A stretch of 64,000 bases of DNA from an uncultured Nitrospiraceae bacterium (GTDB lineage Bacteria; Nitrospirota; Thermodesulfovibrionia; Thermodesulfovibrionales; UBA6898), in contig CAWEQH010000004.1 of NCBI GenBank assembly GCA_963811165.1, positions 800,001-864,000 of the forward strand. Reading direction: 5' to 3'. Below the pieces are notes generated by a model. It was not told the DNA's origin, did no database searches, and was given only the letters and a program-made list of their open reading frames with translations. Below are positions 1-56,181 of this stretch, in pieces (position 1 is the stretch's first letter; every line of letters begins with the position of its first letter). The position numbers were made by a program, and so were the translations under genes.

Positions 1-3000
1 TATTTTTTGATAACGCCTCTGAGGGCGTTCGCCAGACTATCCCGGGATTTACGGGGGGAACCATCTCGACTCAGGCGCTCCCGCCGGCCCCGCCCGCCAT
101 TACCGGCGTGACACCACCGACAGGACCTGCTGCAGGCGGCACAAGCATCACCATAAGCGGGACGAATTTTATTAATGTCACGGCCGTTGAAGTAGGCGGC
201 ACGCCTGTGCTTGATCTCGTTGTTGACAATTCGGCACAGATCACTGCCGAGACACCACCGGGTCTTACCGGTCCTGCGGATGTCATCGTGATGACTACCT
301 CCGGTATGACCACCTTTTCCAATGGGTTTACCTACACAGGTCCTCCGGTTATCGACTCTATTACTCCCGCGTATGGTGCACAGACGGGCGGCACGCTGTT
401 TACTGTCAAGGGCAGGGGGTTTGAGACGACGAGCACGATAAGCATCGGCGGGGCCCTGTGTACCGGTATCACATTTGTCGATTCCTCGACACTTACGGCA
501 ATGACCCCTGCGGGAACGCCCGGAGACGCCAATGTGGATGTGACCAACTCGCAGGGGACCACGACTGTCCATAACGGATTCTTTTATCTTTCGTCGTCCA
601 ACACGATTCGCATGAATTTCACCTATGCCAGCCGGACGGCACTCCTCGCGGCCGGATGGGACTTTCTTGCAAGGACGTCTTTGGGAGCGACGCGCGACAC
701 TGAACAGACCAGCGGGTTGGTCGTCTCCTATGACCAGACAGCCCATCCCGGTGTTCTTCGGATACCGATAGACGCAGGAGACATCTGGGAGGGCACGAAC
801 GACTCGAGAAACACCCTCTTCTACAGCCTGCCGGACGTCTGGCGCAGCATAAGGCTCAAAGCTTCCGGCATCAGCCTGAACGATGATAATCAGGAGGTCT
901 GTGTCGTCGCCTATCAGGACGACGACAACTACGTGCTTCTCTGCAGGGCTTTCAATAGTGACGCTCCGGGGAACCAGGTACTCGAATTTGGAGCAGAGAG
1001 TCTTGGCTCCTATGACGTTATTACCCGGGTCGCCGCCGCCGGTTCTGTCTGTTATTTGAGACTTGACAGAGACGTTTCTGGCAATGTCTTTTCTGCCTTT
1101 GCCTCGACTGACGGAGTGAACTGGGGTCCCTTGTCAGGAAGTGTGACAAGGACGCTCACAAGCCCTCGCCTGGGCATCCTTGCCGGTGCGAACGGATCAA
1201 CCACGTCATTCCCCACGGCAGACATCCAATTTGCAGAAATAGTAGCGTTTGTAGCTGATCCTCTCCCGCCCACAGTGAGCAGTGTCAGTCCTCCGAGCGG
1301 GTCGACGGCGGGAGGGACGGTGGTGCAGATAAGCGGCACCGGGTTTGTGCCGGGGAGCACGGTAAAAATCGGAGGGACGAGTGCGACGAGTGTGATAGTG
1401 AACAGTGATATCAGCATCAGCGCCGTGACGCCTGCGAATGCTGCGGGTGCAGCTGATGTTGCGATAACGAACACAAACGGAACGGGGACTCTGACGGGAG
1501 GGTTTATCTATTATACGCCTGGCAGCACCCTTTTCTCTGATGACTTCAACGACGGTAATGCGACCGGCTGGACGATTTCGCCGCTGGGGAATGGGACAGC
1601 CTGGAGCGTGGTCAGCGGGGCATATACAAATATACCTCCCCCGGTACTGGTTAAGCAATTCCTATACAGGGAATGCCTCATGGAGCGATTATACCCTTCA
1701 GGCAGACATACGTTGTCCACGTTGAGCGATTGGCCGGGCGGGATACGGGGCCGGGTGAACCCTGCGAGCGGCGCCGGTTATGCCGCATGGCTCTATCCGG
1801 CAGAGGGAGGTATCATACTGTTTAGTGTTGTAGATTGGGATATCGACAACGGGTATACTGAGTTGGGACGTGTAGACGGAATCACCTTTGACACTACCAG
1901 TTTTCACACTCTTGGGCTCAGTTTCACGGGCAGTACAATCAAGGTGTACTTTGACGGCCTCCTGGTGATCACTGCCACAGACACCACCTATAACAGCGGG
2001 CTGATCGCCCTTGATGTAAGCAATCAGACCGTCGAGTTCGATAACATAAGCGTGGTCTTCGGCACACCCGTATTCCCGCCGGCCATCAGCAGCATCAACC
2101 CGCCGAGCGGGTCTACGGCGGGCGGCACGGTGGTGCAGATAAACGGCAGCGGGTTCATCTCGGGTAGCACGGTAACAATCGGAGGAGTGAGCGCGACGGG
2201 TGTAGTGATCAATAGTTCAACCAGCATTACCGCGACGACGCCCGCGGGCACTTCGGGTGCGGCTGATGTCGTGGTAACAAATACAAATGGAACGGGGACT
2301 CTGACGGGAGGATTTACGTACTATACACCCGGCAGCACCCTTTTCACGGATGACTTTAATGACGGCAATGCCAATGGCTGGACGATTTCGCCGCTGGGGA
2401 ATGCATCAGGGTGGAGCGTTGTCGGTGGGATATATACATACAATGGCAGTGGTCTTACTAACTCCTATACGGGATCCGCCTCATGGAGCGATTACACCCT
2501 TGTGGCGGGTATCAAGCTGTCTTCGCTGTCGGATCTCCCGGGTGGGATACGGGGGCGGGTGAACCTGGCTTCGGGCGCCGGTTATGCGGTCTGGCTCTAC
2601 CCGGCAGAAGGACAGATCAAGCTGTTCCGTGCAACAGGGTGGGACATCGACAGCGTTGGACAGACGCAGCTGGGACCTACTGCCAACGGAATAACCTTTG
2701 ACACGAATTTCCACTCGGTCTGGCTGAATTTCAGCGGCACCACTATCACCGTATATTTTGACGGAACGCCGGTAATCACCGCGAGCGATGCAACCTATGG
2801 CAGCGGGGTGATCGCCCTTGATGTGAACAACCAGCCAATACAGTTTGATAACGTGAGTGTGATCTTTGGTATCCCTGTATTGCCGCCGGCAGTGAGCAGC
2901 GTCAGCCCTCCGAGCGGGTCCACATTGGGCGGCACGGCGGTGCAGATAAACGGCAGCGGATTTATCTCGGGAAGCACGGTGACAATCGGTGGGGCAAGTG

Positions 3001-6000
3001 CGACGGGAGTCGTAGTCAATGGTGCTACCAGCATAAGCGCAGTGACGCCTTCGGGCGGTGCAGGGGGGGCTGATGTAGTAGTGACGAATGCCAATGGCAC
3101 AGGGACCCTGACCGGGGGATTTGAGTATATTACTCCGGGCAGTACCCTCTTGTCAGATGACTTTTCAGGAGGGGCGGGCGCCTGGACGATATCGCCGCTG
3201 GGGATTCTGGCAAACTGGAATGCATCAGGTGATGTACTCTCATACAATGGCGGCGGTTTAAGCAATGTATACCGGGGAGATCCTTTCTGGAGTGATTACA
3301 GCTTCCAGGCGGACATAAGGTTGTACACACTGGACAACTGGCCTGGCGGAATACGGGGTCGAGTGAATCCCACGACAGGTGCAGGGTATGCGGTATGGCT
3401 TTATCCCGCAGATGGTTATATCAAGCTGTTCAACGCGCCGAAGTGGGACATCAATGATGCTTCCACTCAATTATTAATGGATGTCGGAGGGATTAGCTTT
3501 GACACAACGAGTTTTCACACAGTGGGGATGACGTTCTCGGGCTCGACCATCAAGGTCTATTACGACGGCGCTCTGGTGATCACGGCCACGGATTCAACCT
3601 ATACCAGCGGGCTGATCGCCCTCGATGTGAGCGACCAGCCCGTTGATTTCGACAATGTGATCGTCACTACTGATAAAGCGAATCAAACGATCGCAGTGAC
3701 GACCCATGCCCCGGTCAGCGCGGCGTACAACTCGACCTTCAATGTGGCTGCGACAGCGAGTTCAGGGCTTGATGTAGCGATCACATCGTCGGGGTCTTGC
3801 AGCGGCACCGGCACCGGCTCGGCCATTATCACTATGACGAGCAGCACTGGCGCCTGCTCGGTGAACTACAACCAGGCTGGTGACAGCATTTACAACGGAG
3901 CACCCCAGGTTAGCGAGACGACCACGGCCCAGATGGCCAACCAGACGATCAGCTTTGGAGCATTGGGTGACAAGACCTATGGTGATTCACCGTTTACAGT
4001 TAGTGCGACGGCGACATCGGGGTTGACGGTGAGCTTCAGCAGCCAGACCACTTCGGTCTGTACGGTCACCGGAACTACCGTGACGATAGTAGCGAGCGGT
4101 ATCTGTACGGTAAGGGCGTCACAGGGCGGCAACAGCAATTATAACGCAGCGCCCAATGTTGACCAGCCTTTTACGATCAACAAAGCGAACCAGGCAACGG
4201 TGACAGTCAATGCGACGAGTCCGCTGACCTATGGTGGCTCTACGGGGACAGCGACGGCCTCAGGGGGCAGTGGGACGGGGGCGTATAGCTACAGCGCGGG
4301 GGGATCGACGGCGTGCAGCGTAAACTCATCAACGGGTGTAATAACGGTGACGAGCGGTACGGGTACGTGCTCGATAACCGCGACGAGGGCTGGTGACAGC
4401 AATTACAACGTGTCGGCAGTAAGCGCAGCGGCAAATGTGACGATCAACAAAGCGAACCAGGCAACGGTGACAGTCAATGCGACGAGTCCTCTGACCTATG
4501 GTGGCTCTACGGGGACAGCGACGGCCTCAGGGGGCAGCGGGACGGGGGCGTACAACTACAGCGCAGGATCATCGACGGCATGCAGCGTAGGCCTGACTAC
4601 GGGAGTGATCACCGTGACGAGCGGCACAGGCACGTGTGCGATCACCGCGACAAGGCTTGGCGACAGCAATTACAATGTATCAGCAGTAAGCGCAGCGGCA
4701 AATGTGACGATCAACAAAGCGAACCAGGCAACGGTGACAGTCAATGCGACGAGTCCGCTGACCTATGGTGGCTCTACGGGGACAGCGACGGCCTCAGGGG
4801 GCAGCGGGACGGGGGCGTACAACTACAGCGCAGGATCATCGACGGCATGCAGCGTAGGCCTGACTACGGGAGTGATCACCGTGACGAGCGGCACAGGCAC
4901 GTGTGCGATCACCGCGACAAGGCTTGGCGACAGCAATTACAATGTATCAGCAGTAAGCGCAGCGGCAAATGTGACGATCAACAAAGCGAACCAGGCAACG
5001 GTGACAGTCAATGCGACGAGTCCTCTGACCTATGGTGGCTCTACGGGGACAGCGACGGCCTCAGGGGGCAGCGGGACGGGGGCGTACAACTACAGCGCAG
5101 GATCATCGACGGCATGCAGCGTAGGCCTGACTACGGGAGTGATCACCGTGACGAGCGGCACAGGCACGTGTGCGATCACCGCGACAAGGCTTGGCGACAG
5201 CAATTACAATGTATCAGCAGTAAGCGCAGCGGCAAATGTGACGATCAACAAAGCGAACCAGGCAACGGTGACAGTCAATGCGACGAGTCCGCTGACCTAT
5301 GGTGGCTCTACGGGGACAGCGACGGCCTCAGGGGGCAGCGGGACGGGGGCGTACAACTACAGCGCAGGATCATCGACGGCATGCAGCGTAGGCCTGACTA
5401 CGGGAGTGATCACCGTGACGAGCGGCACAGGCACGTGTGCGATCACCGCGACAAGGCTTGGCGACAGCAATTACAATGTATCAGCAGTAAGCGCAGCGGC
5501 AAATGTGACGATCAACAAAGCGAACCAGGCAACGGTGACAGTCATTGCGACGAGTCCGCTGACCTATGGCGGCTCTACGGGGACAGCGACGGCCTCAGGG
5601 GGCAGTGGGACAGGGGCATACAGCTATAGCGCGGGGGCATCGACGGCATGCAGTGTGAATGCTGTTACGGGTGTAATAACGATGACGAGCGGGACAGGAA
5701 CGTGTTCGATCACGGCGACTAGAGCCGGAGACAGTAACTATAACACTTCTGCGGCAAGCGCAGCGGCAAATGTGACGATCAACAAGGCGAACCAGGCAAT
5801 CACCTTCGGAGCGCTTCCGGACAAAACAGCTGATGATGTACCTTTTGCAGTAAGCGCGACGTCGGATTCGGGGCTGGCGGTAAGTTTCAGCAGCTTGACG
5901 ACAGGAGTATGTACAGTAACACCAGATGGCACAGTAACGCTCACACACACGTCGGTAGATACGTGCACGATTCGGGCCTCGCAGGGTGGCAACGAGAATT

Positions 6001-6287
6001 ATAACGCGGCACCCGATGTTGATCAGTCCTTTGCGGTGAATGCGGGACCTGTTTGGAGAGAATTTGGCGGGATTCCAGTATATTACTACTCCACTATTCA
6101 GGCTGCCTTTGACGGTGCAGCAGATCAGGATGTGATTCAGACTCAGTTGATCTCGATTGAAGAAATCGATTTTAGACCGCCTGCCTGGATATCCATCACG
6201 TTGCAAGCGCCCGCAGGACATGCCGCAGTGAAGTCCATGACCATCACCAATGGGGCGGTAACGGTTGACGGACTGTGGATCCAGTGA
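1..6287 (+). CDS. Giant surface protein, 5'-partial: IPT/TIG repeats, ConA/LamG-like beta-sandwich domains, Ig-like tandem repeats, conserved C-terminal domain
   Basis: The frame of ORF 108..6287 is open back to nt 3 (FFDNASEGVRQTIPGFTGG), matching FFDNASEGVPHSLSGFVGG in the next gene, so the real start lies outside the window. IPT motifs (P.SG.TAGGT.V.I.G.GF) and FSDDFNDG...FDNV domains recur. Confidence 0.85.
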   Translation, partial: FFDNASEGVRQTIPGFTGGTISTQALPPAPPAITGVTPPTGPAAGGTSITISGTNFINVTAVEVGGTPVLDLVVDNSAQITAETPPGLTGPADVIVMTTSGMTTFSNGFTYTGPPVIDSITPAYGAQTGGTLFTVKGRGFETTSTISIGGALCTGITFVDSSTLTAMTPAGTPGDANVDVTNSQGTTTVHNGFFYLSSSNTIRMNFTYASRTALLAAGWDFLARTSLGATRDTEQTSGLVVSYDQTAHPGVLRIPIDAGDIWEGTNDSRNTLFYSLPDVWRSIRLKASGISLNDDNQEVCVVAYQDDDNYVLLCRAFNSDAPGNQVLEFGAESLGSYDVITRVAAAGSVCYLRLDRDVSGNVFSAFASTDGVNWGPLSGSVTRTLTSPRLGILAGANGSTTSFPTADIQFAEIVAFVADPLPPTVSSVSPPSGSTAGGTVVQISGTGFVPGSTVKIGGTSATSVIVNSDISISAVTPANAAGAADVAITNTNGTGTLTGGFIYYTPGSTLFSDDFNDGNATGWTISPLGNGTAWSVVSGAYTNIPPPVLVKQFLYRECLMERLYPSGRHTLSTLSDWPGGIRGRVNPASGAGYAAWLYPAEGGIILFSVVDWDIDNGYTELGRVDGITFDTTSFHTLGLSFTGSTIKVYFDGLLVITATDTTYNSGLIALDVSNQTVEFDNISVVFGTPVFPPAISSINPPSGSTAGGTVVQINGSGFISGSTVTIGGVSATGVVINSSTSITATTPAGTSGAADVVVTNTNGTGTLTGGFTYYTPGSTLFTDDFNDGNANGWTISPLGNASGWSVVGGIYTYNGSGLTNSYTGSASWSDYTLVAGIKLSSLSDLPGGIRGRVNLASGAGYAVWLYPAEGQIKLFRATGWDIDSVGQTQLGPTANGITFDTNFHSVWLNFSGTTITVYFDGTPVITASDATYGSGVIALDVNNQPIQFDNVSVIFGIPVLPPAVSSVSPPSGSTLGGTAVQINGSGFISGSTVTIGGASATGVVVNGATSISAVTPSGGAGGADVVVTNANGTGTLTGGFEYITPGSTLLSDDFSGGAGAWTISPLGILANWNASGDVLSYNGGGLSNVYRGDPFWSDYSFQADIRLYTLDNWPGGIRGRVNPTTGAGYAVWLYPADGYIKLFNAPKWDINDASTQLLMDVGGISFDTTSFHTVGMTFSGSTIKVYYDGALVITATDSTYTSGLIALDVSDQPVDFDNVIVTTDKANQTIAVTTHAPVSAAYNSTFNVAATASSGLDVAITSSGSCSGTGTGSAIITMTSSTGACSVNYNQAGDSIYNGAPQVSETTTAQMANQTISFGALGDKTYGDSPFTVSATATSGLTVSFSSQTTSVCTVTGTTVTIVASGICTVRASQGGNSNYNAAPNVDQPFTINKANQATVTVNATSPLTYGGSTGTATASGGSGTGAYSYSAGGSTACSVNSSTGVITVTSGTGTCSITATRAGDSNYNVSAVSAAANVTINKANQATVTVNATSPLTYGGSTGTATASGGSGTGAYNYSAGSSTACSVGLTTGVITVTSGTGTCAITATRLGDSNYNVSAVSAAANVTINKANQATVTVNATSPLTYGGSTGTATASGGSGTGAYNYSAGSSTACSVGLTTGVITVTSGTGTCAITATRLGDSNYNVSAVSAAANVTINKANQATVTVNATSPLTYGGSTGTATASGGSGTGAYNYSAGSSTACSVGLTTGVITVTSGTGTCAITATRLGDSNYNVSAVSAAANVTINKANQATVTVNATSPLTYGGSTGTATASGGSGTGAYNYSAGSSTACSVGLTTGVITVTSGTGTCAITATRLGDSNYNVSAVSAAANVTINKANQATVTVIATSPLTYGGSTGTATASGGSGTGAYSYSAGASTACSVNAVTGVITMTSGTGTCSITATRAGDSNYNTSAASAAANVTINKANQAITFGALPDKTADDVPFAVSATSDSGLAVSFSSLTTGVCTVTPDGTVTLTHTSVDTCTIRASQGGNENYNAAPDVDQSFAVNAGPVWREFGGIPVYYYSTIQAAFDGAADQDVIQTQLISIEEIDFRPPAWISITLQAPAGHAAVKSMTITNGAVTVDGLWIQ
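4173..5774 (+). repeat. Six tandem 267-bp (89-aa) in-frame Ig-like repeats
   Basis: ACGATCAACAA(A/G)GCGAACCAGGCAA begins at 4173, 4440, 4707, 4974, 5241, 5508 and 5775. Units 2-5 are near-identical. Confidence 0.95.
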
Positions 6288-6374
6288 TGAGAAAAGTGAG
6301 AGACAGATACTGTGAACATTCTTGAAGCATAGAGTCGATTGAATAATGTAAATGTACGAGGCAGGAGGGATAAA

Positions 6375-9300
6375 ATGAGGCGACTTTTTGTTGCAATACT
6401 GGCAGGGGTATGCTTTTTAGGGTATGCGGGGGGTGCATTTTGTCAGGATTATAACCTTACCGTTGCCGTGCTCGTGAATTCTACCAATACCAGCGGATAC
6501 AACACGAACGCCGCCAGTCCTGGCGAATATCAGCGGTACCCGGAAAGATACCTGGAGCATTTACAGGTACCTTATAAAGTGTTCGATGTGTCGGTGCAAT
6601 CACCGCCGGCAGACCTTTCCTCCAGGCAGTTGATTCTGATAGGCCACAGCGGAGTCAACTTGCCTTCCCAGTGGCAGACAGCGGTCATAAGCGCTGTCGC
6701 AGGCGGCACCGGCCTCGTGAACCTGGACTGGAGTGTAAACATCGGTTCTAGCTCTTATATCCAGACTATCTTCGGTGCGAGCGGATCGCATGCGGGGACT
6801 CCGGGGACATCCATAACCGTTCCGCTATCGGTCGCGCCGGGAGGAGTGAACGCTCATTACATTGCGGCAATGCAGAAGAAGTTTCTCGGGGATCCCTCGG
6901 GAGATTTTGTGTACAAATTCCACGTAGACCAAAACGGCTCGCTGAAGACCGCGACGAGCACGGTGCTTACGAATGCCGGGGGGATTGTAATCGCCAGAAT
7001 CGGTTCCGATCCTCTTATTGTTGCGACCACATACGGCTCTGGAAGGGCGGTTCATTTCGGAACCCTGGACTACCTGAGGGCTGACCGCTTCGGCTTCTTG
7101 ATGGGGATCGACGACCTTTTCTGGCGGAGCCTCGTCTGGGCCGCCCGCAAGCCATTTGTCCTCAGAGGATATCCAAGACTCTGGGCAGTGCAGATGGACG
7201 ACACGGATGTCGGCTGGGGATTAAGGATACGCGATGTCTACGACCCGACTTTCACCGGCACGGTTGCGCCTGACGGCACCGGCGGTCCCTGGAAGCTCAC
7301 CGGATTTCTTTATACCGATGACCTGCCGGCAGGCGGAGCGGAGAGGGCTTCGGTCACTGCCGACATCCGACAGGGACTCCTCAAGGTGGCGCCTCATACG
7401 TTCGGCGGAGTTACCTACGGCAATCTGTATTGGAACGATGGCAGTGGAGCACTCACCGACACCCAGTGGTCAGCGAATCTCACGCAGGTCCTCCAATGGA
7501 AACAAGGAAATGGAGGAAACGATACGATCCCGTCCTTGTCCCGCTCTCTGGTGGCCCACTACTGGGATATAAGTGACAATACAGGATACGACCTATGGAA
7601 CAGCCTTGGTTTCAGGTACATCACCTCTATTCAGAAGCCCGGCTTCCAGGACAACGCGGATGTAACTATAAATGGAGGAGCCGAGCGACCCCATGCAAGG
7701 CCTTTCTGGCTCTACGAGCAGCCTCCAAAAACAGTGGCTGATGAGGATTACTCCCTTTTCTTTGCCGATGACTATCCTGTCAACAGCCGGTCTGGGTATC
7801 CATCGAAGACGTTTTTCCTTTTCGCGTCACAGTTGCACGATCCGGGGCTGAACTATCCGAGGGTGGATGCCATCTGGCCATCAAGCAGTTATGGCTTTGC
7901 CCCGGCCGACAGCATAGCCCAGTTTGAGCGGTATACATGGCGCTTCTGGTCGTGCCTCGCACCAGTGCAGCTCTTTACCCATGACTACTACAATTACGAA
8001 TGGGCGTCGGCTTCCGACAGGCAACAGGTCATCGTGCAGGTTTCCTCATGGCTCCAGAGCCTGGGGGTCCGTCATGCATTTATGGAAGAGCTTGGCGACT
8101 ATATCTACAGCAGGAACAAATCGGTTCTAACCGATGTCCAGGTCTCCGGCAACAATATCACCTATACATTTACGGGGAATTCCGCCACCGCGGATGGCAC
8201 CCTTGTGAATACAAATGCGCTCGTTTTCTTCGATAATGCCTCTGAAGGAGTGCCGCACTCTCTCTCGGGTTTTGTCGGAGGTATCACTTATACGCTCCAG
8301 CTGCCCCAGGCACCACCGGTTATCAACAGTGTAACCCCATCAACCGGCTCTGTTACGGGGGGGACGAGCATCACCATAAACGGCGCTAATTTCGTAAATG
8401 TCATGGCAGTCAAAGTAGGAGGCAATCCCGTCACCAATTTGGCTGTCGGCAGTTCTTCGCAGATCACTGCGACGACACCTTCCGGCGTCACGGGTTCTGC
8501 GGATGTCGTGGTGGTGACCGCATCAGGGATGACTACCCTTGCAAACGGTTTTACCTATCTGGGCCTTCCCGTTATCGATTCTGTCACCCCCGGGTTTGGC
8601 CCGCAGGCGGGGGGTACGCAGGTTACCATTATAGGCAGAGGGTTTGATGCTACGAGTACCGTAACTGTCGGCGGTGTTCCGGCTACGGGTGTTGTCGTTA
8701 CAGATTCCGCGACCCTGACGGCAATGACGCCCGCGGGTGTCCCGGGGCCTGCCGGTGTGACAGTCACGAATGCACAGGGTGCGACAACACTGTCGGGAGG
8801 GTTCTTCTATCTGTCAGCATCGGACACCATTCACATGGACTTCAAGTATGCCAACCGATCGGCATTATTGAGTGCCGGATGGGATTTCATCGCGAGGACA
8901 TATTCAGGAATCTCACGGAATACGGAACAGACAAGTGGTCTGGTGGTCTCCTACGACCAGACCGCACACCCGGGGACGATCCGAATACCGGTCGGTCCGG
9001 GGGATATGTGGGAGAATACAAACGACTCCCAAAATACCCTCTTTTTCAACCTCCCGGACAACTGGAACAGCATTAATCTGAAAATTGTGAGTTTCAGCCC
9101 CACGGCAGATTTTCAACAGGTCGGTCTCCTGGCCTATCAGGATGATGACAATTATGTGTCAGTGAGCCGGTACTACAGTAGCGGACTGTCATACAAGCAG
9201 ACAGTGGAGTTTGGCATCGAAGACTCCGGCTACTATAACGTAACCGATCAGAGACAGGCTCCTTCAGGCGCGGTTATCTATTTGCGGCTGGATAGGGATC

Positions 9301-12300
9301 CGTCCACCGATGTAATTTCCGCTTTCAGTTCAACCGACGGCAATACATGGACATCTCTGTCAGGAAGCATTACAAAGACTCTTGTGAAGCCTCGCCTATG
9401 CATACTGATCGGTGCTAATTTATCAGGGACATCACCCAACGCCGATCTCGGATATGTTGAAATTGTGGCACACAATAGTACACCACCCGCTCCGACGGTC
9501 ACGGCCATATCACCCACGAGCGGGCCGACAGCAGGAGGCACGACAGTACAGATCAGCGGTACGGGGTTCATCGCGGGCAGCACGGTTAAGATAGGGACAG
9601 TAGCTGCGACGGGTGTAGTTGTCAATAGTGCCACCAGTATAAGCGCCGTGACGCCTGCGGGAACTGCAGGTGCTGCGAATGTAGTAGTGACGAACACGAA
9701 CGGGACAGGCACCTTCTCCGGTGGGTTCACCTATGTGGCTCCAATACCGCCGACGGTCACGGGTATATCACCGGCGAGCGGGCCGACAGCAGGAGGGACG
9801 GCAGTACAGATCAGCGGTACGGGGTTCATTGCGGGAAGCACGGTTAAGATAGGGACAGTCGCTGCGACGGGCGTAGTCGTAAACAGTACAACCAGCATCA
9901 GTGCCGTGACGCCTGCCGGGACTGCAGGTGCAGCGGATGTAGTAGTGACGAACACGAACGGGACAGGCACACTAACAGGCGGGTTTACCTATGTGGCATC
10001 CGGCGGTACGCTTTTTTCGGATGACTTTAATGATGGCAATGCCAATGGGTGGACAATCTCGCCGCTGGGGAATGCAGCCGGGTGGAGCGTTGTGGGAGGT
10101 GTGTATACCTACAACGGTGGAGGCCACACCCAGTCTTATACGGGAGACGCCACCTGGGCTGACTATACCATACAAGCAGACATAGAGTTATCTTCATTAA
10201 GCAACTGGCCCGGAGGCATACGCGGTCGGGTAAACCCTGCTACGGGTGCCGGGTATGTCGTCTGGCTGTACCCTGCTAACGGGCAGATCGTGCTTTGGAG
10301 GGCAACGGGATGGAATATCGATAGCCCTGGGTTGACACAGTTAGGTACAGCCGGAGGAATCGCCTTTGACACTTCGAATTTTCACACAGTACGGATAACA
10401 TTTGCCGGATCAACGATTACCGTATACTACGACGGTGCGTTGGTGATCACTGCCGCGGATGCAACGTATAGCAGCGGTTTGATCGCCCTTGACGTGTCCA
10501 ACCAGCCTGTCAGCTTCGACAATGTGACAGTAATATCGGGTAGCCCTTTGCCACCCGCTCCGACGGTCACGGGCATATCACCCACGAGCGGGCCGACAGC
10601 AGGAGGCACGGCAGTACAGATAACCGGCAGCGGGTTTATCACAGGGAGTACGGTTAAGATAGGGACAGTCGCTGCGACGGGCGTAGTCGTAAACAGTACA
10701 ACCAGCATCAGTGCCGTGACGCCTGCCGGAACTGCCGGTGCGGCGGATGTAGTAGTGACGAACACGAACGGGACAGGCACCCTTACCGGAGGATTTACCT
10801 ACTTAGCACCGCCGTCAGCCCCGACGGTCACGGGCATATCACCCACGAGCGGGCCGACAGCAGGAGGCACGGCAGTACAGATCAGCGGTACGGGGTTCAT
10901 CGCGGGGAGCACGGTCACGATAGGGGGCGCAAGTGCGACGGGTGTAGTTGTCAATAGTGCCACCAGTATAAGCGCCGTGACGCCTGCGGGAACTGCAGGT
11001 GCTGCGAATGTAGTAGTGACGAACACGAACGGGACAGGCACCTTCTCCGGTGGGTTCGTCTATGTGGCTCCAATACCGCCGACGGTCACGGGCATATCAC
11101 CCGCGAGCGGGCCGACCGGTGGAGGGACGGCAGTACAGATCAGCGGTACCGGGTTTATTACAGGGAGTACGGTCACGATAGGGGGCGCAAGTGCGACGGG
11201 TGTAGTTGTCAATAGTGCCACCAGTATAAGCGCCGTGACGCCTGCCGGGACTGCAGGTGCAGCGGATGTAGTAGTGACGAACACGAACGGGACAGGCACA
11301 CTAACGGGTGGGTTCACCTATGTGGCATCCGGCGGTACGCTTTTTTCGGATGACTTTAATGATGGCAATGCCAATGGGTGGACAATCTCGCCGCTGGGGA
11401 ATGCAGCCGGGTGGAGCGTTGTGGGAGGTGTGTATACCTACAACGGTGGAGGCCACACCCAGTCTTATACGGGAGACGCCACCTGGGCTGACTATACCAT
11501 ACAAGCAGACATAGAGTTATCTTCATTAAGCAACTGGCCCGGAGGCATACGCGGTCGGGTAAACCCTGATACGGGTGCCGGGTATGCCGTCTGGCTGTAC
11601 CCTGCTAACGGGCAGATCGTGCTTTGGAGGGCAACGGGATGGAATATCGATAGCCCTGGGTTGACACAGTTAGGTACAGCCGGAGGAATCGCCTTTGACA
11701 CTTCGAATTTTCACACAGTACGGATAACATTTGCCGGATCAACGATTACCGTATACTACGACGGTGCGTTGGTGATCACTGCCGCGGATGCAACGTATAG
11801 CAGCGGCTTGATCGACCTTGACGTGTCCAACCAGCCTGTCAGCTTCGACAATGTGACAGTAATATCGGGTAGCCCTTTGCCACCCGCTCCGACGGTCACG
11901 GGCATATCACCCACGAGCGGGCCGACAGCGGGAGGCACGGCAGTACAGATCAGCGGTACGGGGTTCATCGCGGGAAGCACGGTTAAGATAGGGACAGTCG
12001 CTGCGACGGGCGTAGTCGTAAACAGTACAACCAGCATCAGTGCCGTGACCCCTGCCGGGACTGCAGGTGCAGCGGATGTAGTAGTGACGAACACGAACGG
12101 AACAGGCACCCTTACCGGAGGATTTACCTACTTAGCACCGCCGTCAGCCCCGACAGTCAGCAGCATATCACCGGCGAGCGGGCCGACCGGTGGAGGGACG
12201 GCAGTACAGATAACCGGCAGCGGGTTTATTACAGGGAGTACGGTCACGATAGGGGGCGCAAGTGCGACGGGTGTAGTTGTCAATAGTGCCACCAGTATAA

Positions 12301-13349
12301 GCGCAGTGACGCCTGCGGGAACTGCAGGTGCTGCGAATGTAGTAGTGACGAACACGAACGGAACAGGCACCCTTACCGGAGGATTTACCTACTTAGCACC
12401 GCCGTCAGCCCCGACAGTCAGCAGCATATCACCGGCGAGCGGGCCGACCGGTGGAGGGACGGCAGTACAGATAACCGGCAGCGGGTTTATTACAGGGAGC
12501 ACGGTCACGATAGGGGGCGCAAGTGCGACGGGTGTAGTTGTCAATAGTGCCACCAGTATAAGCGCAGTGACGCCTGCGGGAACTGCAGGTGCTGCGAATG
12601 TGGCGGTGACGAACACGAACGGGAGTGGCATATTAACGGGAGGGTTTACCTATAGCGCCAATTCCTCAACGGCGGTAAAGGCTCTTGACAGCTGGAAAAA
12701 CCTCTACTCTGCCTCGCCGAACAACGCCAGAGCTAGCAACCTTAATGCGGGAAGTTTTGCAGTCGGCAGCGGATCACAGCGCCTTTTGCTCGTTTCAGTG
12801 ATCATGGAGATCGGCACGGCCGCAAACCCGACCATCAGCGCCAAGTATGGGGGGACCACCTTAACCCAGATCGGAATAACCGCCAACACTCAACGTGAAA
12901 TTGTCTGGGTGGGTTATCTCAAGGACGCTCAAATCGGTAGCGGATCCAAGGCCCTGACGATTTCCTACAGCGGCGCATCGGGCAATGTGAGCGCCTTGCA
13001 TGTGAAGTGGGCGTCTTACGCCGGCGTGAACCAGGGCAATCCGGTTGCCAGTTCAGCAGCCCATAATACAGGGTCGACTTCAGTCACCTTTGGCAGCACC
13101 ATCAACTATGTAAATGGCGGCGTGACCATCGTGGTGGCCGGTAACGGTGGTACCCCTGCGACGGGAACGCTCACCGCAACCCCGTCCTTTAGTGCGGGGA
13201 CCGCCACGACGACCAACGCGCAGACCAGCAGGACCTTCGCCACCGCGACACATACCGCGGCTGGCAGCTACTCAAGTTCCACCGCGGTGACCTGGAGCGG
13301 GACGACCAGTCCCCGATCAGGCCTGGTGGTCGTTTCCATGCAGCCATAG
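6375..13349 (+). CDS. Giant secreted surface protein: signal peptide, ~650-aa putative carbohydrate-esterase-like head, about ten IPT/TIG repeats, ConA/LamG-like domains
   Basis: ORF 6339..13349; ATG 6375 follows AGGAGG and gives a signal peptide (MRRLFVAILAGVCFLGYAGGAFC). IPT repeats; VQMDD, APH and LFTHD motifs in the head. Confidence 0.85.
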   Translation: MRRLFVAILAGVCFLGYAGGAFCQDYNLTVAVLVNSTNTSGYNTNAASPGEYQRYPERYLEHLQVPYKVFDVSVQSPPADLSSRQLILIGHSGVNLPSQWQTAVISAVAGGTGLVNLDWSVNIGSSSYIQTIFGASGSHAGTPGTSITVPLSVAPGGVNAHYIAAMQKKFLGDPSGDFVYKFHVDQNGSLKTATSTVLTNAGGIVIARIGSDPLIVATTYGSGRAVHFGTLDYLRADRFGFLMGIDDLFWRSLVWAARKPFVLRGYPRLWAVQMDDTDVGWGLRIRDVYDPTFTGTVAPDGTGGPWKLTGFLYTDDLPAGGAERASVTADIRQGLLKVAPHTFGGVTYGNLYWNDGSGALTDTQWSANLTQVLQWKQGNGGNDTIPSLSRSLVAHYWDISDNTGYDLWNSLGFRYITSIQKPGFQDNADVTINGGAERPHARPFWLYEQPPKTVADEDYSLFFADDYPVNSRSGYPSKTFFLFASQLHDPGLNYPRVDAIWPSSSYGFAPADSIAQFERYTWRFWSCLAPVQLFTHDYYNYEWASASDRQQVIVQVSSWLQSLGVRHAFMEELGDYIYSRNKSVLTDVQVSGNNITYTFTGNSATADGTLVNTNALVFFDNASEGVPHSLSGFVGGITYTLQLPQAPPVINSVTPSTGSVTGGTSITINGANFVNVMAVKVGGNPVTNLAVGSSSQITATTPSGVTGSADVVVVTASGMTTLANGFTYLGLPVIDSVTPGFGPQAGGTQVTIIGRGFDATSTVTVGGVPATGVVVTDSATLTAMTPAGVPGPAGVTVTNAQGATTLSGGFFYLSASDTIHMDFKYANRSALLSAGWDFIARTYSGISRNTEQTSGLVVSYDQTAHPGTIRIPVGPGDMWENTNDSQNTLFFNLPDNWNSINLKIVSFSPTADFQQVGLLAYQDDDNYVSVSRYYSSGLSYKQTVEFGIEDSGYYNVTDQRQAPSGAVIYLRLDRDPSTDVISAFSSTDGNTWTSLSGSITKTLVKPRLCILIGANLSGTSPNADLGYVEIVAHNSTPPAPTVTAISPTSGPTAGGTTVQISGTGFIAGSTVKIGTVAATGVVVNSATSISAVTPAGTAGAANVVVTNTNGTGTFSGGFTYVAPIPPTVTGISPASGPTAGGTAVQISGTGFIAGSTVKIGTVAATGVVVNSTTSISAVTPAGTAGAADVVVTNTNGTGTLTGGFTYVASGGTLFSDDFNDGNANGWTISPLGNAAGWSVVGGVYTYNGGGHTQSYTGDATWADYTIQADIELSSLSNWPGGIRGRVNPATGAGYVVWLYPANGQIVLWRATGWNIDSPGLTQLGTAGGIAFDTSNFHTVRITFAGSTITVYYDGALVITAADATYSSGLIALDVSNQPVSFDNVTVISGSPLPPAPTVTGISPTSGPTAGGTAVQITGSGFITGSTVKIGTVAATGVVVNSTTSISAVTPAGTAGAADVVVTNTNGTGTLTGGFTYLAPPSAPTVTGISPTSGPTAGGTAVQISGTGFIAGSTVTIGGASATGVVVNSATSISAVTPAGTAGAANVVVTNTNGTGTFSGGFVYVAPIPPTVTGISPASGPTGGGTAVQISGTGFITGSTVTIGGASATGVVVNSATSISAVTPAGTAGAADVVVTNTNGTGTLTGGFTYVASGGTLFSDDFNDGNANGWTISPLGNAAGWSVVGGVYTYNGGGHTQSYTGDATWADYTIQADIELSSLSNWPGGIRGRVNPDTGAGYAVWLYPANGQIVLWRATGWNIDSPGLTQLGTAGGIAFDTSNFHTVRITFAGSTITVYYDGALVITAADATYSSGLIDLDVSNQPVSFDNVTVISGSPLPPAPTVTGISPTSGPTAGGTAVQISGTGFIAGSTVKIGTVAATGVVVNSTTSISAVTPAGTAGAADVVVTNTNGTGTLTGGFTYLAPPSAPTVSSISPASGPTGGGTAVQITGSGFITGSTVTIGGASATGVVVNSATSISAVTPAGTAGAANVVVTNTNGTGTLTGGFTYLAPPSAPTVSSISPASGPTGGGTAVQITGSGFITGSTVTIGGASATGVVVNSATSISAVTPAGTAGAANVAVTNTNGSGILTGGFTYSANSSTAVKALDSWKNLYSASPNNARASNLNAGSFAVGSGSQRLLLVSVIMEIGTAANPTISAKYGGTTLTQIGITANTQREIVWVGYLKDAQIGSGSKALTISYSGASGNVSALHVKWASYAGVNQGNPVASSAAHNTGSTSVTFGSTINYVNGGVTIVVAGNGGTPATGTLTATPSFSAGTATTTNAQTSRTFATATHTAAGSYSSSTAVTWSGTTSPRSGLVVVSMQP
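9731..12650 (+). repeat. Intragenic 1329-bp tandem duplication (IPT, lectin-like, IPT, IPT) followed by a 261-bp IPT duplication
   Basis: Matching sequence is offset by 1329 nt (CTATGTGGCTCCAATACCG at 9731 and 11060; shadow ORFs at 10163/11492) and by 261 nt (12128/12389). Confidence 0.9.
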
Positions 13350-39028: not shown

Positions 39029-39234
39029 ATTATTTTTTTGAGTATTAGATTAAAAAAAATTCATCATTTCTTAATCGTAATTTAATGTTTCTTCTGTAAT
39101 GTCAATGGGCGACGTTAGAGGTGATGATAATGGAGCAAAGAATAATGAATGCAAAAAGGATGGCTATGTCGCTCAACGAAAGACTGCCAAACTCAGCTTT
39201 AATGTTACTGAGCGAAAATCACAGAGGTATACGC

Positions 39235-40794
39235 ATGTCGATAATTACTTCCGTAATAAGATATACGCAGGTTGTCCCACGTTATCTTTTCGTTGGCCTG
39301 CTCGCGTTTGCCGTCATAACGCTGTCTATTTCTTCTCCGTACGGCGCCTATGGCGCTCAGGCAACATTGACTTGGAACGCTCCAGCCACTAACACTGATG
39401 GGACCCCTCTGACGGACCTCTCAGGCTACAAGATTTACTATGGGACAGCCTCGGGTAATTATTCTCAGACTATTGATGTGGGAGGCATAACGAGTTCAAC
39501 TGTTTCCAATTTGACCGACGGAACTACTTATTATTTTGCAATGACTGCATATGATACATCGGGAAACGAAAGCGCATATTCCAACGAAGTAAGTAAAACA
39601 ACACAAACTGTCCAGCAATATTCTCTGGCGATAACGAAGAGCGGGACCGGCTCAGGCACGGTAACAAGTTCTGCGGGGGGAATAAACTGCGGTACTGCCT
39701 GCACGGCGACGTACAGTCCCGGTTCAGTAGTAACGCTGACGGCCGCGCCTGCAGGCGGGTCGACGTTTACGGGCTGGTCTGGAGGCGGTTGTGCAGGGAC
39801 TGGAACTTGCTCATTGTCGATGAATGGCAATATAGCGGTAACAGCCACCTTTGGGAGTAACACTTACTCCATCACCTCAACGGCAGGGGCAGGAGGAACA
39901 ATATCTCCCTCCGGGACTGTGACCGTGAATGCTGGAACAAGCAAGACATTTACGATTACATCGAATGCAGGCTATCATGTATCAGACGTAAAGGTTGATG
40001 GTGCATCAGTTGGTGCTGTCACGACATATACCCTCAACAATGTAACGGCAAACCATACAATAGCATCGACCTTTGCGGTCACTACCTATATAGTCACTCC
40101 TTCAGCAGGAGCACATGGCAGTATCAGTCCATCGACCGCGAGGACAGTAAATTACAACGGAACTGCATCATTCACAGTGACGCCAAATACTGGATATAAT
40201 ATCGTCTCTGTGACAGGCTGTGGTGGAATGCTATCCGGCAGCACATACACCACCGGCCCCATAACGGCGAATTGTACGGTAACAGCCACCTTTGGGATTA
40301 ACACTTACTCCATCACCTCAACGGCAGGGGCAGGAGGAACAATATCTCCCTCCGGGACTGTGACCGTGAATTCTGGAACAAGCAAGACATTTACGATTGC
40401 TCCCTCTGCCGGTTACTCCATCGGAGCTGTGAAGGTTGATGGTGCATCAGTTGGTGCTGTTGCGACGTATACCTTCAGCAATATAAGTTCCGGTCATACC
40501 ATCTCAGCGACATTCAATCCGGCACAAGTAACATGCGGGAGCCAGCCAGTTAAAGACGGAAATGCATATTATCCTTCTGTCCAGACGGCTTACAATGTTG
40601 CGCAAAATGGGGCCGACCTGCAGATTCTCGCGACGAGTTTAAGTGGAACTCCGAATCTCACTCGCAATATTCAGCTTAGCCTGCAGGGAGGGTATGACTG
40701 CGGATTTAACAGCAGTTCTTTATATTCGACTATCTCGGGGGCGCTGGTTATAAGTGCGGGGAGCGTCACAATTGAGAATATTATTATCATCTGA
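39235..40794 (+). CDS. Secreted FN3 plus InlB-B-repeat-like surface protein with conserved C-terminal domain
   Basis: ORF 39121..40794; ATG 39235 follows GAGG and gives a signal peptide. FN3 motifs LTW, GYKIYYG, YYF..TAYD..GNES; GTGSGTV...FTGWSG repeats. Confidence 0.85.
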   Translation: MSIITSVIRYTQVVPRYLFVGLLAFAVITLSISSPYGAYGAQATLTWNAPATNTDGTPLTDLSGYKIYYGTASGNYSQTIDVGGITSSTVSNLTDGTTYYFAMTAYDTSGNESAYSNEVSKTTQTVQQYSLAITKSGTGSGTVTSSAGGINCGTACTATYSPGSVVTLTAAPAGGSTFTGWSGGGCAGTGTCSLSMNGNIAVTATFGSNTYSITSTAGAGGTISPSGTVTVNAGTSKTFTITSNAGYHVSDVKVDGASVGAVTTYTLNNVTANHTIASTFAVTTYIVTPSAGAHGSISPSTARTVNYNGTASFTVTPNTGYNIVSVTGCGGMLSGSTYTTGPITANCTVTATFGINTYSITSTAGAGGTISPSGTVTVNSGTSKTFTIAPSAGYSIGAVKVDGASVGAVATYTFSNISSGHTISATFNPAQVTCGSQPVKDGNAYYPSVQTAYNVAQNGADLQILATSLSGTPNLTRNIQLSLQGGYDCGFNSSSLYSTISGALVISAGSVTIENIIII

Positions 40795-41354: not shown

Positions 41355-44273
41355 ATGTCAGCATCAAAGGATCGTCGGAAACATTTGAGCCCACAGTCAC
41401 GTATTTCTCTGGCTGGTATCTTTTCATTTTTAGTTTTTATCGCACTCTTTCTTTATCCCAACAGTGCATTTCCGGGACTGGCTACGCTTACCTGGAACGC
41501 TCCAGCCACTAACACTGATGGGACCCCTCTGACGGACCTCTCAGGCTACAAGATTTACTATGGGACAGCCTCGGGTAATTATTCTCAGACTATTGATGTG
41601 GGAGGTATAACGAGTTCAACTGTTTCCAATTTGACCGACGGAACTACTTATTATTTTGCAGTGACTGCATATGATACATCGGGAAACGAAAGCGCATATT
41701 CCAACGAAGTAAGTAAAACAACACAAGCTGTCCAGCAATATTCTCTGGCGATAACGAAGAGCGGGACCGGCTCAGGCACGGTAACAAGTTCTGCGGGGGG
41801 AATAAACTGCGGTACTGCCTGCACGGCGACGTACAGTCCCGGTTCAGTAGTAACGCTGACGGCCGCGCCTGCAGGCGGGTCGACGTTTACGGGCTGGTCT
41901 GGAGGCGGTTGTGCAGGGACTGGAACTTGCTCATTGTCGATGAATGGCAATATAGCGGTAACAGCCACCTTTGGGATTAACACTTACTCCATCACCTCAA
42001 CGGCAGGGGCAGGAGGAACAATATCTCCCTCCGGGACTGTGACCGTGAATTCTGGAACAAGCAAGACATTTACGATTGCTCCCTCTGCCGGTTACTCCAT
42101 CGGAGATGTGAAGGTTGATGGAACTTCAGTGGGCGCTGTTGCGACATATACCCTCAGCAATGTAACGGCAAACCACGTGATAGCGGCGACCTTTGTGGTC
42201 AATACTTATATAGTTACTCCTTCAGCAGGGGCAAATGGCAGTGTCAGTCCATCGACCGCGATGACGGTAAATTACAACGGAACTGCATCATTCACAGTGA
42301 CGCCAAATACTGGATATAATATCGTCTCTGTGACAGGCTGTGGTGGAATGCTATCCGGCAGCACATACACCACCGGCCTCATAACGGCGAATTGTACGGT
42401 AACAGCCACCTTTGGGATTAACACTTACTCCATCACCGCAACGGCAGGGGCAGGAGGAACAATATCTCCCTCCGGGACCGTGACCGTGAATTCTGGAACA
42501 AGCAAGACATTTACGATTACCCCGAATACCGGCTACTCGATATCTGAGGTGATCGTGGATAGTTTGTCGGCAGGCGCGGTTACATCCTATTCATTCACCA
42601 ATGTAACCGGGAACCACAGTTTATCAGTATCGTTTGCTCCTTTGGATTTTGATGACGATGGTATTTCAGATATAGAAGAGTGGGGACCACAGGGAAATGA
42701 CCCGAACTATGACGGCAATAATGATGGGGTTCCTGACTACCTGCAAAACAGTGTAGCGTCGCTCCACACGGCGGGCAGCAATGACTACATAACTCTCTTT
42801 TCGGCAGATGGATATGCACTTAAGGATGTCATGGCAGAGCCGGTACCTGAGGGAACACCTGTTGGTGCGGAGCTCCCGTATCAGTTCATTAGTTTTACTG
42901 TGGATGAAGTCGCAGCCGGGGCAAGCACAACTGTAGTCGTCAAACTCCCTGATGGTGTTGTGGTCAATGATTACTATAAGTATGGGCCGACACCCGACAA
43001 TCCTGCATTACACTGGTATAGCTTTATGTTCGACGGACAGACTGGTGCCGAAATCTCAGGGAATATTATCACCCTTCACTTTGTAGACGGACTAAGGGGA
43101 GACGATGATCTTATTGCGAATGGACAGATAGTCGACCAGGGAGGTCCCGCAGAGACGCCCGTTGTCGGAGCAACGCCATCCTCCATCGATTTTGGCACAA
43201 CAGCAGTGAACACTACTTCGGTGACGCAAAGTGTGAGTATATCAAACAACGGCCTTGCCCCGCTCATCGTAAGTGCCGTGATGATCACCGGCTCTGATGC
43301 AGGGGACTTCGTGGTTCTTGGGGAGACCTGTTCGTCACAGACTACGGCCTCCGCAGGAACATGCAATGTTAGCGTAGCTTTCGCTCCGCATGCGGCCGGG
43401 AATAAGAACGCATCTCTGACAATTTCCTCGGACGACCCCCGCACGCCGATTCTTGTCATTCCAGTTAGCGGAACGGGAACCATACCTCAGTTTACTCTCT
43501 CCGTAACCAAAACGGGCAATGGAACGGTTTCAAGCAGCACGACAGGTATCATGTGCGGAAGTGCCTGCTCAACCCTCCTAAATGAAGGGACGGTCGCAAT
43601 CTTAACTGCAACTCCTGGGGCGGACTCGATATTCATCGGTTGGTCCGGAGGTGGTTGTGCGGGGACTGGCATTTGCTCATTGTCAATGAATGGCGCTGTA
43701 AGTGTAACGGCCACCTTTGCGGTCAAAACGTACACAATCGCGGCAACGGCAGGTACAGGAGGGACAATATCTCCTTCCGGTGCCGTAACCGCGAATTATG
43801 GAACAAGCAAGACATTTGCGATTACTCCATCTGCCGGTTACTCCATCGGAGATGTGAAGGTTGATGGAACTTCAGTGGGCGCTGTTGCGACGTATACTTT
43901 CAGTAATATCACTGTCAGCCACGCGATCTCTGCTGGCTTTGTGAGCGGGAAAATACCCGCCATCTCCGTATCTCCTGCATCTTACGTCTTCAAGACAACA
44001 AAAGTCGGTTATTCGTCGTCCAAGATATTCAAAATCACAAACATAGGAAAGGCTAATCTTTCGATACTGAAAGTCGAGATTATCGGAACCGATGCGAACG
44101 CGTTCGGTACATCCTTTGCCGGAACAAAGACGCTAAGTCCATCACGGTACTTCTACCAGACAATTAAATTCAGACCGACATCTAAAGGGGTAAAAAATGC
44201 TGTGTTGAGGGTAACCTCGAATGACCCTAAGACCCCAGTCATTGCTGTTCCACTGAGTGGCTCAGGCATATAG
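41355..44273 (+). CDS. Secreted FN3 plus InlB-B-repeat-like protein with Ca-binding DxDxDG motifs and choice-of-anchor U-like and D-like (ASH-type Ig) domains
   Basis: N-half near-identical to the 39235 gene; DFDDDGISD; YYKYGPTP...DGLRGDDD...IVD.GGP; SIDFG...SDDP..P...V.GTG. Confidence 0.85.
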   Translation: MSASKDRRKHLSPQSRISLAGIFSFLVFIALFLYPNSAFPGLATLTWNAPATNTDGTPLTDLSGYKIYYGTASGNYSQTIDVGGITSSTVSNLTDGTTYYFAVTAYDTSGNESAYSNEVSKTTQAVQQYSLAITKSGTGSGTVTSSAGGINCGTACTATYSPGSVVTLTAAPAGGSTFTGWSGGGCAGTGTCSLSMNGNIAVTATFGINTYSITSTAGAGGTISPSGTVTVNSGTSKTFTIAPSAGYSIGDVKVDGTSVGAVATYTLSNVTANHVIAATFVVNTYIVTPSAGANGSVSPSTAMTVNYNGTASFTVTPNTGYNIVSVTGCGGMLSGSTYTTGLITANCTVTATFGINTYSITATAGAGGTISPSGTVTVNSGTSKTFTITPNTGYSISEVIVDSLSAGAVTSYSFTNVTGNHSLSVSFAPLDFDDDGISDIEEWGPQGNDPNYDGNNDGVPDYLQNSVASLHTAGSNDYITLFSADGYALKDVMAEPVPEGTPVGAELPYQFISFTVDEVAAGASTTVVVKLPDGVVVNDYYKYGPTPDNPALHWYSFMFDGQTGAEISGNIITLHFVDGLRGDDDLIANGQIVDQGGPAETPVVGATPSSIDFGTTAVNTTSVTQSVSISNNGLAPLIVSAVMITGSDAGDFVVLGETCSSQTTASAGTCNVSVAFAPHAAGNKNASLTISSDDPRTPILVIPVSGTGTIPQFTLSVTKTGNGTVSSSTTGIMCGSACSTLLNEGTVAILTATPGADSIFIGWSGGGCAGTGICSLSMNGAVSVTATFAVKTYTIAATAGTGGTISPSGAVTANYGTSKTFAITPSAGYSIGDVKVDGTSVGAVATYTFSNITVSHAISAGFVSGKIPAISVSPASYVFKTTKVGYSSSKIFKITNIGKANLSILKVEIIGTDANAFGTSFAGTKTLSPSRYFYQTIKFRPTSKGVKNAVLRVTSNDPKTPVIAVPLSGSGI

Positions 44274-45130: not shown

Positions 45131-46405
45131 TCAGAACTGGTAAGTGAGGCTGACTCCTATCATATGTAAGTCTGTCCTGTATGTTCCATTTGCGGAAGTG
45201 GTAGGGTTCAAGGCACCGTCAAAGGGATTGTCGTCAATGGCATTATTCTTGGATCTGTCTTTCACCTTCTGATATGCATAAGAAATCCCCAAGAGAAATT
45301 TGTTGAAACGGATGTCTGTCCCCATGCAGTAAACCTGAGATTTGCTCGAAGGTACGATGGGGTCGAATGTCTCATCCGGGACGGGATTACCCTCGTAGAT
45401 GTAGCCTGCCATGAAGGCCACAGTGTTATTTACCTGATATCGAGCGCCCATATTAAGGGAGTAAATATCCTTCCACTTCTTGGGATACGTTATTTCCTGA
45501 AATCCGGCAATGGGCAAGTCCGTATTTATGGTGAGCTTGTCATATGAAGACCATCCTTCCCACCTGCCGCCCACTTCGATAGTCAGCGGTGCAAGACCTT
45601 TGTACGCTATACCGAAGTTCGCCGTTGCAGGAAGACTCAGGGTTGTCCGTGCAGCGGTATTTGGGAACATTGATGTCAGTGTTTCCGGAAGCGGGACGGG
45701 GAAGCTGTGCGAGATGTTTCCGTCTATATCTGTCTTGATCCTGCTCCTGAATGCGGCCCCTATCGAGATGTCCTTGGTGACGTCTATGAGCAGCCCGGTA
45801 TTAAAGCCAAGAGCGAAGTCATCTCCCTTGAAGGTCTGCTTCACATCGGGGATGCCGAGGGAACCCAGGTTGAGCATCTTGTTGAGCTCTGCATCGAGGA
45901 AGAGAAATGAAACTCCCGCAGCAAGAGAAATATTCGGAGTAAGCCGGTATGAGACCACAGGGTTCAGGGTGTAAGTAGTCAGAACGGACTTGGTGGCTAT
46001 ATACCTTCCTTCCCAGTCATCAGACCACTTTGTCGCCAGACCGAAGTTGCTGAAGGCGCCGAAACCGACAGATAACTCCCGGGTCATTTTGTAGGTCATA
46101 TAAAGCGTCGAGGGGAAGAACACGTCGTTCGCAGTCTCAAAACTCTTGCCCGAAAAAGAGCTCTGGAACTTGTTATTAGGGATAAGCAGCGTTGTTCCGA
46201 CCTCCAACTGCATTCCGGGGAGGTCATTTATGAGTGCGGGGTTGAAGAATACTGAAGAAGGGTCGTTTGTATGTGCTATCACCGCATTCCCCTGTCCGAG
46301 AGGGGTTGCACCTTGGGTATTTACTGAAAAGCCGGCCCCATAGGCGGCCTCTGCAACAAGCATGAGGACAACTGTCGATAGGAGAATTTGTCGAAGTGGT
46401 CTCAT
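45131..46405 (-). CDS. OmpP1/FadL family outer-membrane transporter for hydrophobic compounds
   Basis: Mature start AGF, NPA motif, FGLATKW, terminal YQF; ATG 46405 follows GGAGGAGG. Confidence 0.92.
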   Translation of the reverse strand: MRPLRQILLSTVVLMLVAEAAYGAGFSVNTQGATPLGQGNAVIAHTNDPSSVFFNPALINDLPGMQLEVGTTLLIPNNKFQSSFSGKSFETANDVFFPSTLYMTYKMTRELSVGFGAFSNFGLATKWSDDWEGRYIATKSVLTTYTLNPVVSYRLTPNISLAAGVSFLFLDAELNKMLNLGSLGIPDVKQTFKGDDFALGFNTGLLIDVTKDISIGAAFRSRIKTDIDGNISHSFPVPLPETLTSMFPNTAARTTLSLPATANFGIAYKGLAPLTIEVGGRWEGWSSYDKLTINTDLPIAGFQEITYPKKWKDIYSLNMGARYQVNNTVAFMAGYIYEGNPVPDETFDPIVPSSKSQVYCMGTDIRFNKFLLGISYAYQKVKDRSKNNAIDDNPFDGALNPTTSANGTYRTDLHMIGVSLTYQF

Positions 46406-56180: not shown

Positions 56181-56181
56181 A

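Follow-up and report, generated by a model that had tools for sequence, protein, structure and literature searches.

The tail shared by two secreted proteins encoded in the analysed stretch of DNA (the window, 64,000 nucleotides, positions 800001-864000 of contig C4 in a genome of 3.66 Mb) is a real, widespread and uncatalogued protein module, and genes for small secreted fibres with a short common tag at the mature N-terminus are tightly linked to genes encoding it. Linkage and structure prediction together suggest a trimeric fibre as partner of the tail domain, a pairing which is new here. We think it rather probable that the tail is a socket which receives the N-terminal ends of a secreted fibre of three chains, and that varied exported enzymes and adhesins are in this way coupled to a tether resembling a phage tail. 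We rate as evenly poised the broader proposal that the Nitrospirota and Desulfobacterota use such a two-part assembly, in which dozens of secreted proteins (enzymes, adhesins and RHS proteins) would each carry a cut beta-helix as a socket. The socket would plug onto trimeric, phage-like fibres that are interchangeable and bear the 9-residue tag at their N-terminus, so that three chains of one protein would complete in trans the beta-helix of another.

Both tails lie on the forward strand and run to a stop codon, at 6048..6287 and 40546..40794, where the first-pass annotation had placed them. The first closes gene 1, of which the window holds the 3' part (3..6287, forward strand), encoding IPT/TIG domains, lectin-like domains of the 3-keto-disaccharide-hydrolase family and Ig-like repeats, followed by the tail domain; the full ORF of ~2,727 aa starts 1.9 kb before the window with a signal-peptide-like leader. 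At about 1620-1730 the consensus of the lectin-like repeats is briefly lost, in the manner of a frameshift that is later compensated. Several genes are split in this assembly, and at 54634-59350 the genes for an RND efflux permease and an outer-membrane channel each seem to be split into two ORFs. The second tail closes a secreted protein with fn3 and divergent InlB B-repeat domains (the 39121/39235 protein; 39121..40794, forward strand). As had been claimed, the two proteins are otherwise unrelated, with no alignment by full-length BLASTP at E 1e-5, and neither has a transmembrane tail (maximum Kyte-Doolittle values of 1.63 and 1.68 for 19-mers past residue 100) or a tail of the LPXTG or PEP-CTERM type, there being no Pfam or NCBIfam match at E<=1 for either tail or for 12 aligned copies. 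Each gene has a tandem paralogue on the forward strand without the tail domain, at 6339..13349 for gene 1 (74% identity across 1,101 aa) and at 41355..44273 for the 39121 gene (79% identity across 449 aa, with terminal choice-of-anchor U and D domains). A polysaccharide biosynthesis cluster with glycosyltransferases, flippase-like and O-ligase-like genes and nucleotide-sugar enzymes (13469-38615) lies between the two domain genes.

That the two tails are copies of one domain was confirmed, although the gene-1 copy is detected solely by the family profile. Pairwise BLASTP of the two tails alone gave no alignment, and an HMM built on 12 other tails of the same genome missed the gene-1 tail at E<10, but an HMM of 185 outside copies ranked it 14th out of 25,638 six-frame ORFs, with an i-E of 2.4e-4 against 0.87 for the next match. 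The canonical tail of the 39121/39235 protein, used alone as query, retrieved 12 further ORFs of the genome, each ending 0-1 residues before the stop, and the genome-wide profile search gives 14 tail-domain ORFs, all with their copy at the stop; a signal-peptide-like leader is present on 10/14, and 4/14 are split-gene fragments. The alignment shows what is divergent in the gene-1 copy: the GG[YW]D..F loop is absent, while the remainder is kept, the helix cap and final three strands among it. Two public runs, possibly from the source sample, have contigs that cover positions 6105-6347 with one substitution and zero indels, and as far as these contigs show the missing loop is therefore not an assembly indel artefact. 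No orthologues of gene 1 were found among 30 relatives. There was no useful sequence match in the PDB and no match in a plasmid search, a locus scan of named genomes gave one weak, unrelated locus, and a protein-cluster atlas gave unnamed clusters plus a 0.87 lead to DUF1565. A literature search lying mostly outside subscription journals found no description of the tail domain or of a domain-fibre pairing.

The tail domain is predicted to be a truncated, uncapped right-handed beta-helix. In the AF2 model (pLDDT 96.4 for the canonical copy versus 81 for the gene-1 copy) an N-terminal helix cap is followed by two to three rungs of right-handed parallel beta-helix with no C-terminal cap, and the predicted chain stops on the last rung, at its third strand, in agreement with the earlier observation that both proteins end on a beta-strand at the stop. 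The best structural match is the N-terminus of a pectin methylesterase (PDB 1xg2; Z 7.2, rmsd 2.3, 72 residues aligned), followed by other beta-helix starts (PDB 6kfn, 1ru4), and a Foldseek search gave no match at E<=0.001; a Z of 7.2 is middling, and the fold assignment is supported by sequence matches to full beta-helices. The order of secondary-structure elements suggests that the gene-1 copy shares this topology. Like pectin-lyase-like beta-helices the tail domain has the helix cap and three-strand rungs in the same order, and its GG[WY]D..F loop also occurs in environmental beta-helix proteins, but it lacks their many-rung groove and C-terminal cap, stopping uncapped after about three rungs (two to three in the model), and is probably too short for a substrate groove. 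By homology, the rung with which the canonical copy ends uncapped (40738..40791, forward strand) is the predicted fibre-docking edge, and the corresponding rung of the gene-1 copy (6234..6284, forward strand; strands 61-68, 72-76 and 78-80) would be equivalent in fibre contact.

The family profile matches 6,442 protein clusters (50% identity), and carriers make up 13/31 relatives, 56/201 class genomes and 11/151 phylum genomes, with copy number per class genome reaching at least 27; one match bears the name Trichlorobacter thiogenes. Its passengers include subtilases, C1, M4 and M10 peptidases, GH44 proteins, multicopper oxidases, propellers and RHS proteins, and among the homologues of one passenger the tail domain was present in 5/120 and CFI-box-CTERM in 12 of 26 scanned. 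The annotation had inferred a lineage-specific export or surface-attachment domain, and had named a strictly C-terminal position as a point to check. Lineage enrichment, the lack of a catalogue entry and the way in which unrelated proteins with signal peptides carry the domain in their anchor slot bear out part of this, whereas the fold expected by analogy with type IX secretion (T9SS) and the strictness of the position are not supported. The last copy is terminal in all 14 ORFs here and, among the 150 best matches from outside, in 136 (93 single-copy, 43 multi-copy), but N-terminal copies straight after the signal peptide (L090:7908-9998, L092:5994-9506, L121:6548-7540) and internal copies also exist. 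Internal copies occur in RHS proteins, right where the RHS core begins (L028:9571-15987, L089:9426-12965, L063, L064), with tagged fibre genes further downstream on the same strand. In a further RHS locus (G043, L027), which has an apparently split arrangement, the RHS core plus tip is encoded by separate ORFs, each with a signal-peptide-like leader (L027:15042-17505, L027:8813-14383), upstream of a large RHS-repeat protein ending in two domain copies. A different C-terminal module, ending ..AdF.y.P..dG..wF.l, seems common to three secreted proteins of G000 (C4:295653-299144, C10:1026656-1029238, C10:1166028-1168145), where IPTL-CTERM-like tails also occur (C8:39830, C8:311771).

The relation to full beta-helices raises another reading, in which the tail merely acts as an inert spacer at the terminus or is what remains of beta-helix proteins that have decayed. 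Five of the 14 non-terminal matches are full beta-helix proteins which align over the first ~70 columns and then continue, so the homology to the start of such proteins is clear, the distribution is patchy (13/31 relatives) and the gene-1 copy is degenerate. We nevertheless hold this reading to be highly improbable, as thousands of clusters end at the same rung with glycines and core residues conserved, and as it would leave the reuse across unrelated passengers and the linkage to fibre genes without a reason.

This linkage concerns small signal-peptide genes near the domain genes, in which the mature chain starts AxGDL(I/T)VxG or ADKL(I/V)VKD. The tag leads into what looks like the shaft of a tail fibre, and the chain closes with a tip that varies (S74 chaperone, tail collar, Cys-rich or lectin-like), with PF13884 above its cut-off in 4/10 small neighbour proteins scanned, and some of the fibres have only their first 9-15 residues in common. 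A fibre-first scan of metagenomes, using a DNA pattern for the fibre motif and blind to the tail domain, gave 35 loci, with the motif right behind a signal-peptide-like leader in 21 and internal in 14. A domain gene lies upstream on the same strand in 15 of the 21 leader-plus-tag loci (11 within 81-331 bp), or in 13/18 after dropping three duplicates, and in 0/14 of the internal-motif control loci, which all represent one protein family; in the other 6/21 there was no domain within the 0.3-3.2 kb of upstream DNA covered. These counts are to be read with the origin of the pattern, as it was derived from fibres first met beside domain genes, one of the 15 linked loci is a re-find of a seed gene, and kin genomes among the samples are not independent. 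Similarly, in the phylum sample (151 genomes) all seven genomes with a leader-plus-tag fibre fall among the 11 domain carriers, and five looser pattern matches elsewhere in that sample are off-frame or internal to unrelated proteins and reflect chance. Counted from the domain side, a tagged fibre gene was present in 11/14 phylum-sample and 7/19 class-sample loci, and the cargo upstream of the fibres varies between multicopper oxidase, subtilase, PKD/InlB and RHS proteins.

Close to the window the association is sparser. Three of the 14 domain genes in this genome adjoin a tagged fibre gene (two of the three being duplicates), as do 3/26 in close relatives, and neither window copy has an adjacent fibre gene; the fibre genes of this genome, one intact gene for an S74 fibre on contig C3 and two frameshifted ones, are all outside the window. 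Some relatives have at least 25 domain copies yet few fibres detectable with the narrow pattern used, and in G003, with 10 domain copies, no S74 fibre was found. At the place where its relatives encode an S74 fibre behind a domain gene of the multicopper-oxidase type, two secreted proteins are encoded in G003 that start DL(L/V)(F/Y)TPV..PCRI.DTR (L019:14313-16656), which are possibly an alternative partner. In G002 a tagged fibre occurs in a multicopper-oxidase locus whose oxidase is without the tail domain. S74 fibres as a class were considered as a domain marker and proved a poor one, being present in 8/31 genomes, with those of G012 and G020 and one of those of G013 lacking both the tag and a domain neighbour.

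The 1:3 geometry was set down as a hypothesis ahead of modelling, and three fibre chains were then modelled with one domain from a natural neighbouring pair (locus L075, not from the window). The pair had an ipSAE of 0.82 (0.81, 0.85, 0.82) versus 0.00 for the best of three controls, which were unrelated proteins and not an open-ended beta-helix, with at least 89% contact agreement between runs and a partner pLDDT of at least 90. The mark used for this score is reached by 116/157 solved complexes and 2/215 mismatched pairs, counts which apply only roughly here, and the L075 score may gain from likeness to solved spike-tip complexes or from generic edge-to-edge stacking. In the model residues 1-9 of every fibre chain lie against domain residues 66-88, and fibre residues 5-7 of the three chains pair with domain strands 70-72, 78-81 and 84-86. 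As the cargo varies and some of the fibres are alike only in the tag, what is conserved on either side is also what is in contact in the model. The loop that gene 1 lacks falls almost wholly outside the modelled interface, and all three contact strands are kept in gene 1.

If the modelled contacts reflect generic stickiness of beta-edges, the domain could instead bind a surface glycan or an S-layer, or pair with itself by way of its open rung, and the fibre linkage could result from shared islands of surface genes. The ancestry of the beta-helix among polysaccharide-acting proteins, the many domain copies in polysaccharide loci, the excess of domain copies over fibres in this family and the interchangeability of the domain with other anchors are all in keeping with such binding. 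It would however leave unexplained why otherwise unrelated fibre tips follow a conserved 9-residue mature N-terminus, and why 11/21 tagged fibre genes begin no more than 331 bp from one that encodes the domain, and we consider it quite unlikely.

With the tail domain as a fibre socket, its open last rung would be completed by three fibre N-termini, one chain per strand (1:3), and the socket may also help the three fibre chains to register. Cargo and fibre would cross the inner membrane via Sec and meet in the periplasm, then exit together or meet again outside, with a T2SS, judged from gene presence, as the likeliest route, and the variable C-terminal tip of the fibre would bind a surface, matrix or target. 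For the two window proteins a docking function is suggested by homology; their copies would bind the few fibres of the genome in trans, or a trimer of unrecognised type, which is the weakest step of the proposal. Of the two roles left open by the annotation, export or surface attachment, a secreted trimeric fibre as partner fits attachment better than an export signal.

Alternatively, the tail domain might mainly be a signal for crossing the outer membrane through a T2SS or some other translocon, with the fibres binding or adjoining it to hitch a ride. The terminal position of 14/14 copies here and of 136/150 best outside matches, the nature of the carriers (large folded proteins with signal peptides), the two T2SS gene sets in this genome and the asymmetry by which fibres need the domain while most domains are without a fibre would all suit such a signal. 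An obligatory terminal export signal is weakened by the close tandem paralogues of both window genes that do without the domain, and by the copies after the signal peptide or inside RHS proteins, positions which a docking module fits better than a terminal signal. Furthermore, G010 and G014, in which a search for the domain found none, have the same types of secretin locus, T2SS-like genes occur in just 1/59 domain loci, and the distribution of the FadL-like barrel encoded nearby does not follow that of the domain. Taken together this makes the export signal unlikely as the main role.

The annotation had also suggested looking for a co-occurring outer-membrane barrel or protease, and none was found that tracks the tail domain. 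As candidate machinery, the FadL-like gene at 45131-46432, with a weak PorV-family match, has a close orthologue in 1/30 relatives, its distant orthologues occur in carriers of the domain as well as in genomes lacking it, and families of secretin, Omp85 and exosortase-like proteins are present in 5/5 genomes tested, two of them without the domain; all were rejected. A polysaccharide locus of G000 (L034) contains a second secretin beside what we take to be an S-layer-like gene, together with a second T2SS gene set (C8:369943-374603, C8:384225-392391), and this second secretin is conserved among relatives with and without the domain. A tagged fibre gene elsewhere (L073:1635-2318) lies directly 3' of GspF-like and pseudopilin-like genes, which resemble the second T2SS set of the genome.

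The unnamed domain ends thousands of surface proteins of anaerobic bacteria active in sulfur, iron and nitrogen cycling, and with a named partner and a residue-level interface a vague sorting signal becomes a binding event which can be tested cheaply. If the docking proposal is true, it would add a new route to bacterial surface appendages from phage-derived fibres, and give a first answer to how fibres without an anchor are held or exported.

Among known systems, cohesin-dockerin is a comparison one might draw for the domain-fibre pairing. Membrane-anchored sorting tails (PEP-CTERM, LPXTG, IPTL-CTERM, CFI-box-CTERM) gave no NCBIfam match to the tail domain, which has no strong hydrophobic 19-mer. 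The T9SS C-terminal domain, to which the first-pass annotation had compared the tails, resembles the tail domain in its length of about 80 residues, in ending diverse signal-peptide enzymes and adhesins and in finishing on a beta-strand, but it is a seven-stranded Ig-like sandwich cleaved by PorU (PMC5445135), whereas the tail domain is predicted to be a beta-helix fragment and also occurs at N-terminal and internal positions; the analogy is not supported with regard to fold. Neither tail, nor the 12 aligned copies, matched the Por secretion-tail models of Pfam/NCBIfam at E<=1, and models for SprA/Sov and PorP (TIGR04189, PF11751) matched in 0/5 genomes, with control genomes likewise giving no match.

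Closer in geometry are PAAR-VgrG and T4 gp5.4-gp5, where a monomer with local three-fold shape closes off the flat tip of a beta-helical trimer, held by a hydrophobic patch and by hydrogen bonds of the main chain, and where PAAR proteins are able to carry cargo (PMC12407873). The predicted 1:3 joint, a monomer on the end of a trimer by strand pairing, is alike, but PAAR is described there as three wrapped hairpins with a metal site capping the C-terminal end of the spike inside a contractile machine (PMC12407873), whereas the tail domain, which has no PAAR family match in Pfam/NCBIfam and differs in predicted fold, is a cut parallel beta-helix predicted to meet fibre N-termini, with Sec-type leaders on both partners. 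The pairing proposed here would, if true, be a Sec-pathway counterpart of PAAR-VgrG loading. The gp38-gp37 pair of T-even phages likewise has a monomer with a short beta-helix domain on a trimeric fibre, and gp38 structures align weakly with the tail-domain model (PDB 6f45 and 9v85, Z 4.0 and 2.9); gp38 attaches to gp37 at the distal end of the virion fibre by a separate N-terminal attachment domain and not by its beta-helix (PMC12032242). Finally, the Bdellovibrio MATs are phage-fibre-like trimers with signal peptides and variable tips, with and without S74 chaperone, and the authors describe the partner that their N-terminal end binds on the surface as unidentified (PMC10769870). The tagged fibres are similar in having a signal peptide and a fibre shaft, some with an S74 chaperone, and differ, by description, in a tag of 9-15 residues versus the conserved N-terminal domain of ~130 aa in MATs (PMC10769870). 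If true, a socket for fibre N-termini would bear on the tethering of signal-peptide fibres such as these, and yield a small 1:3 protein connector.
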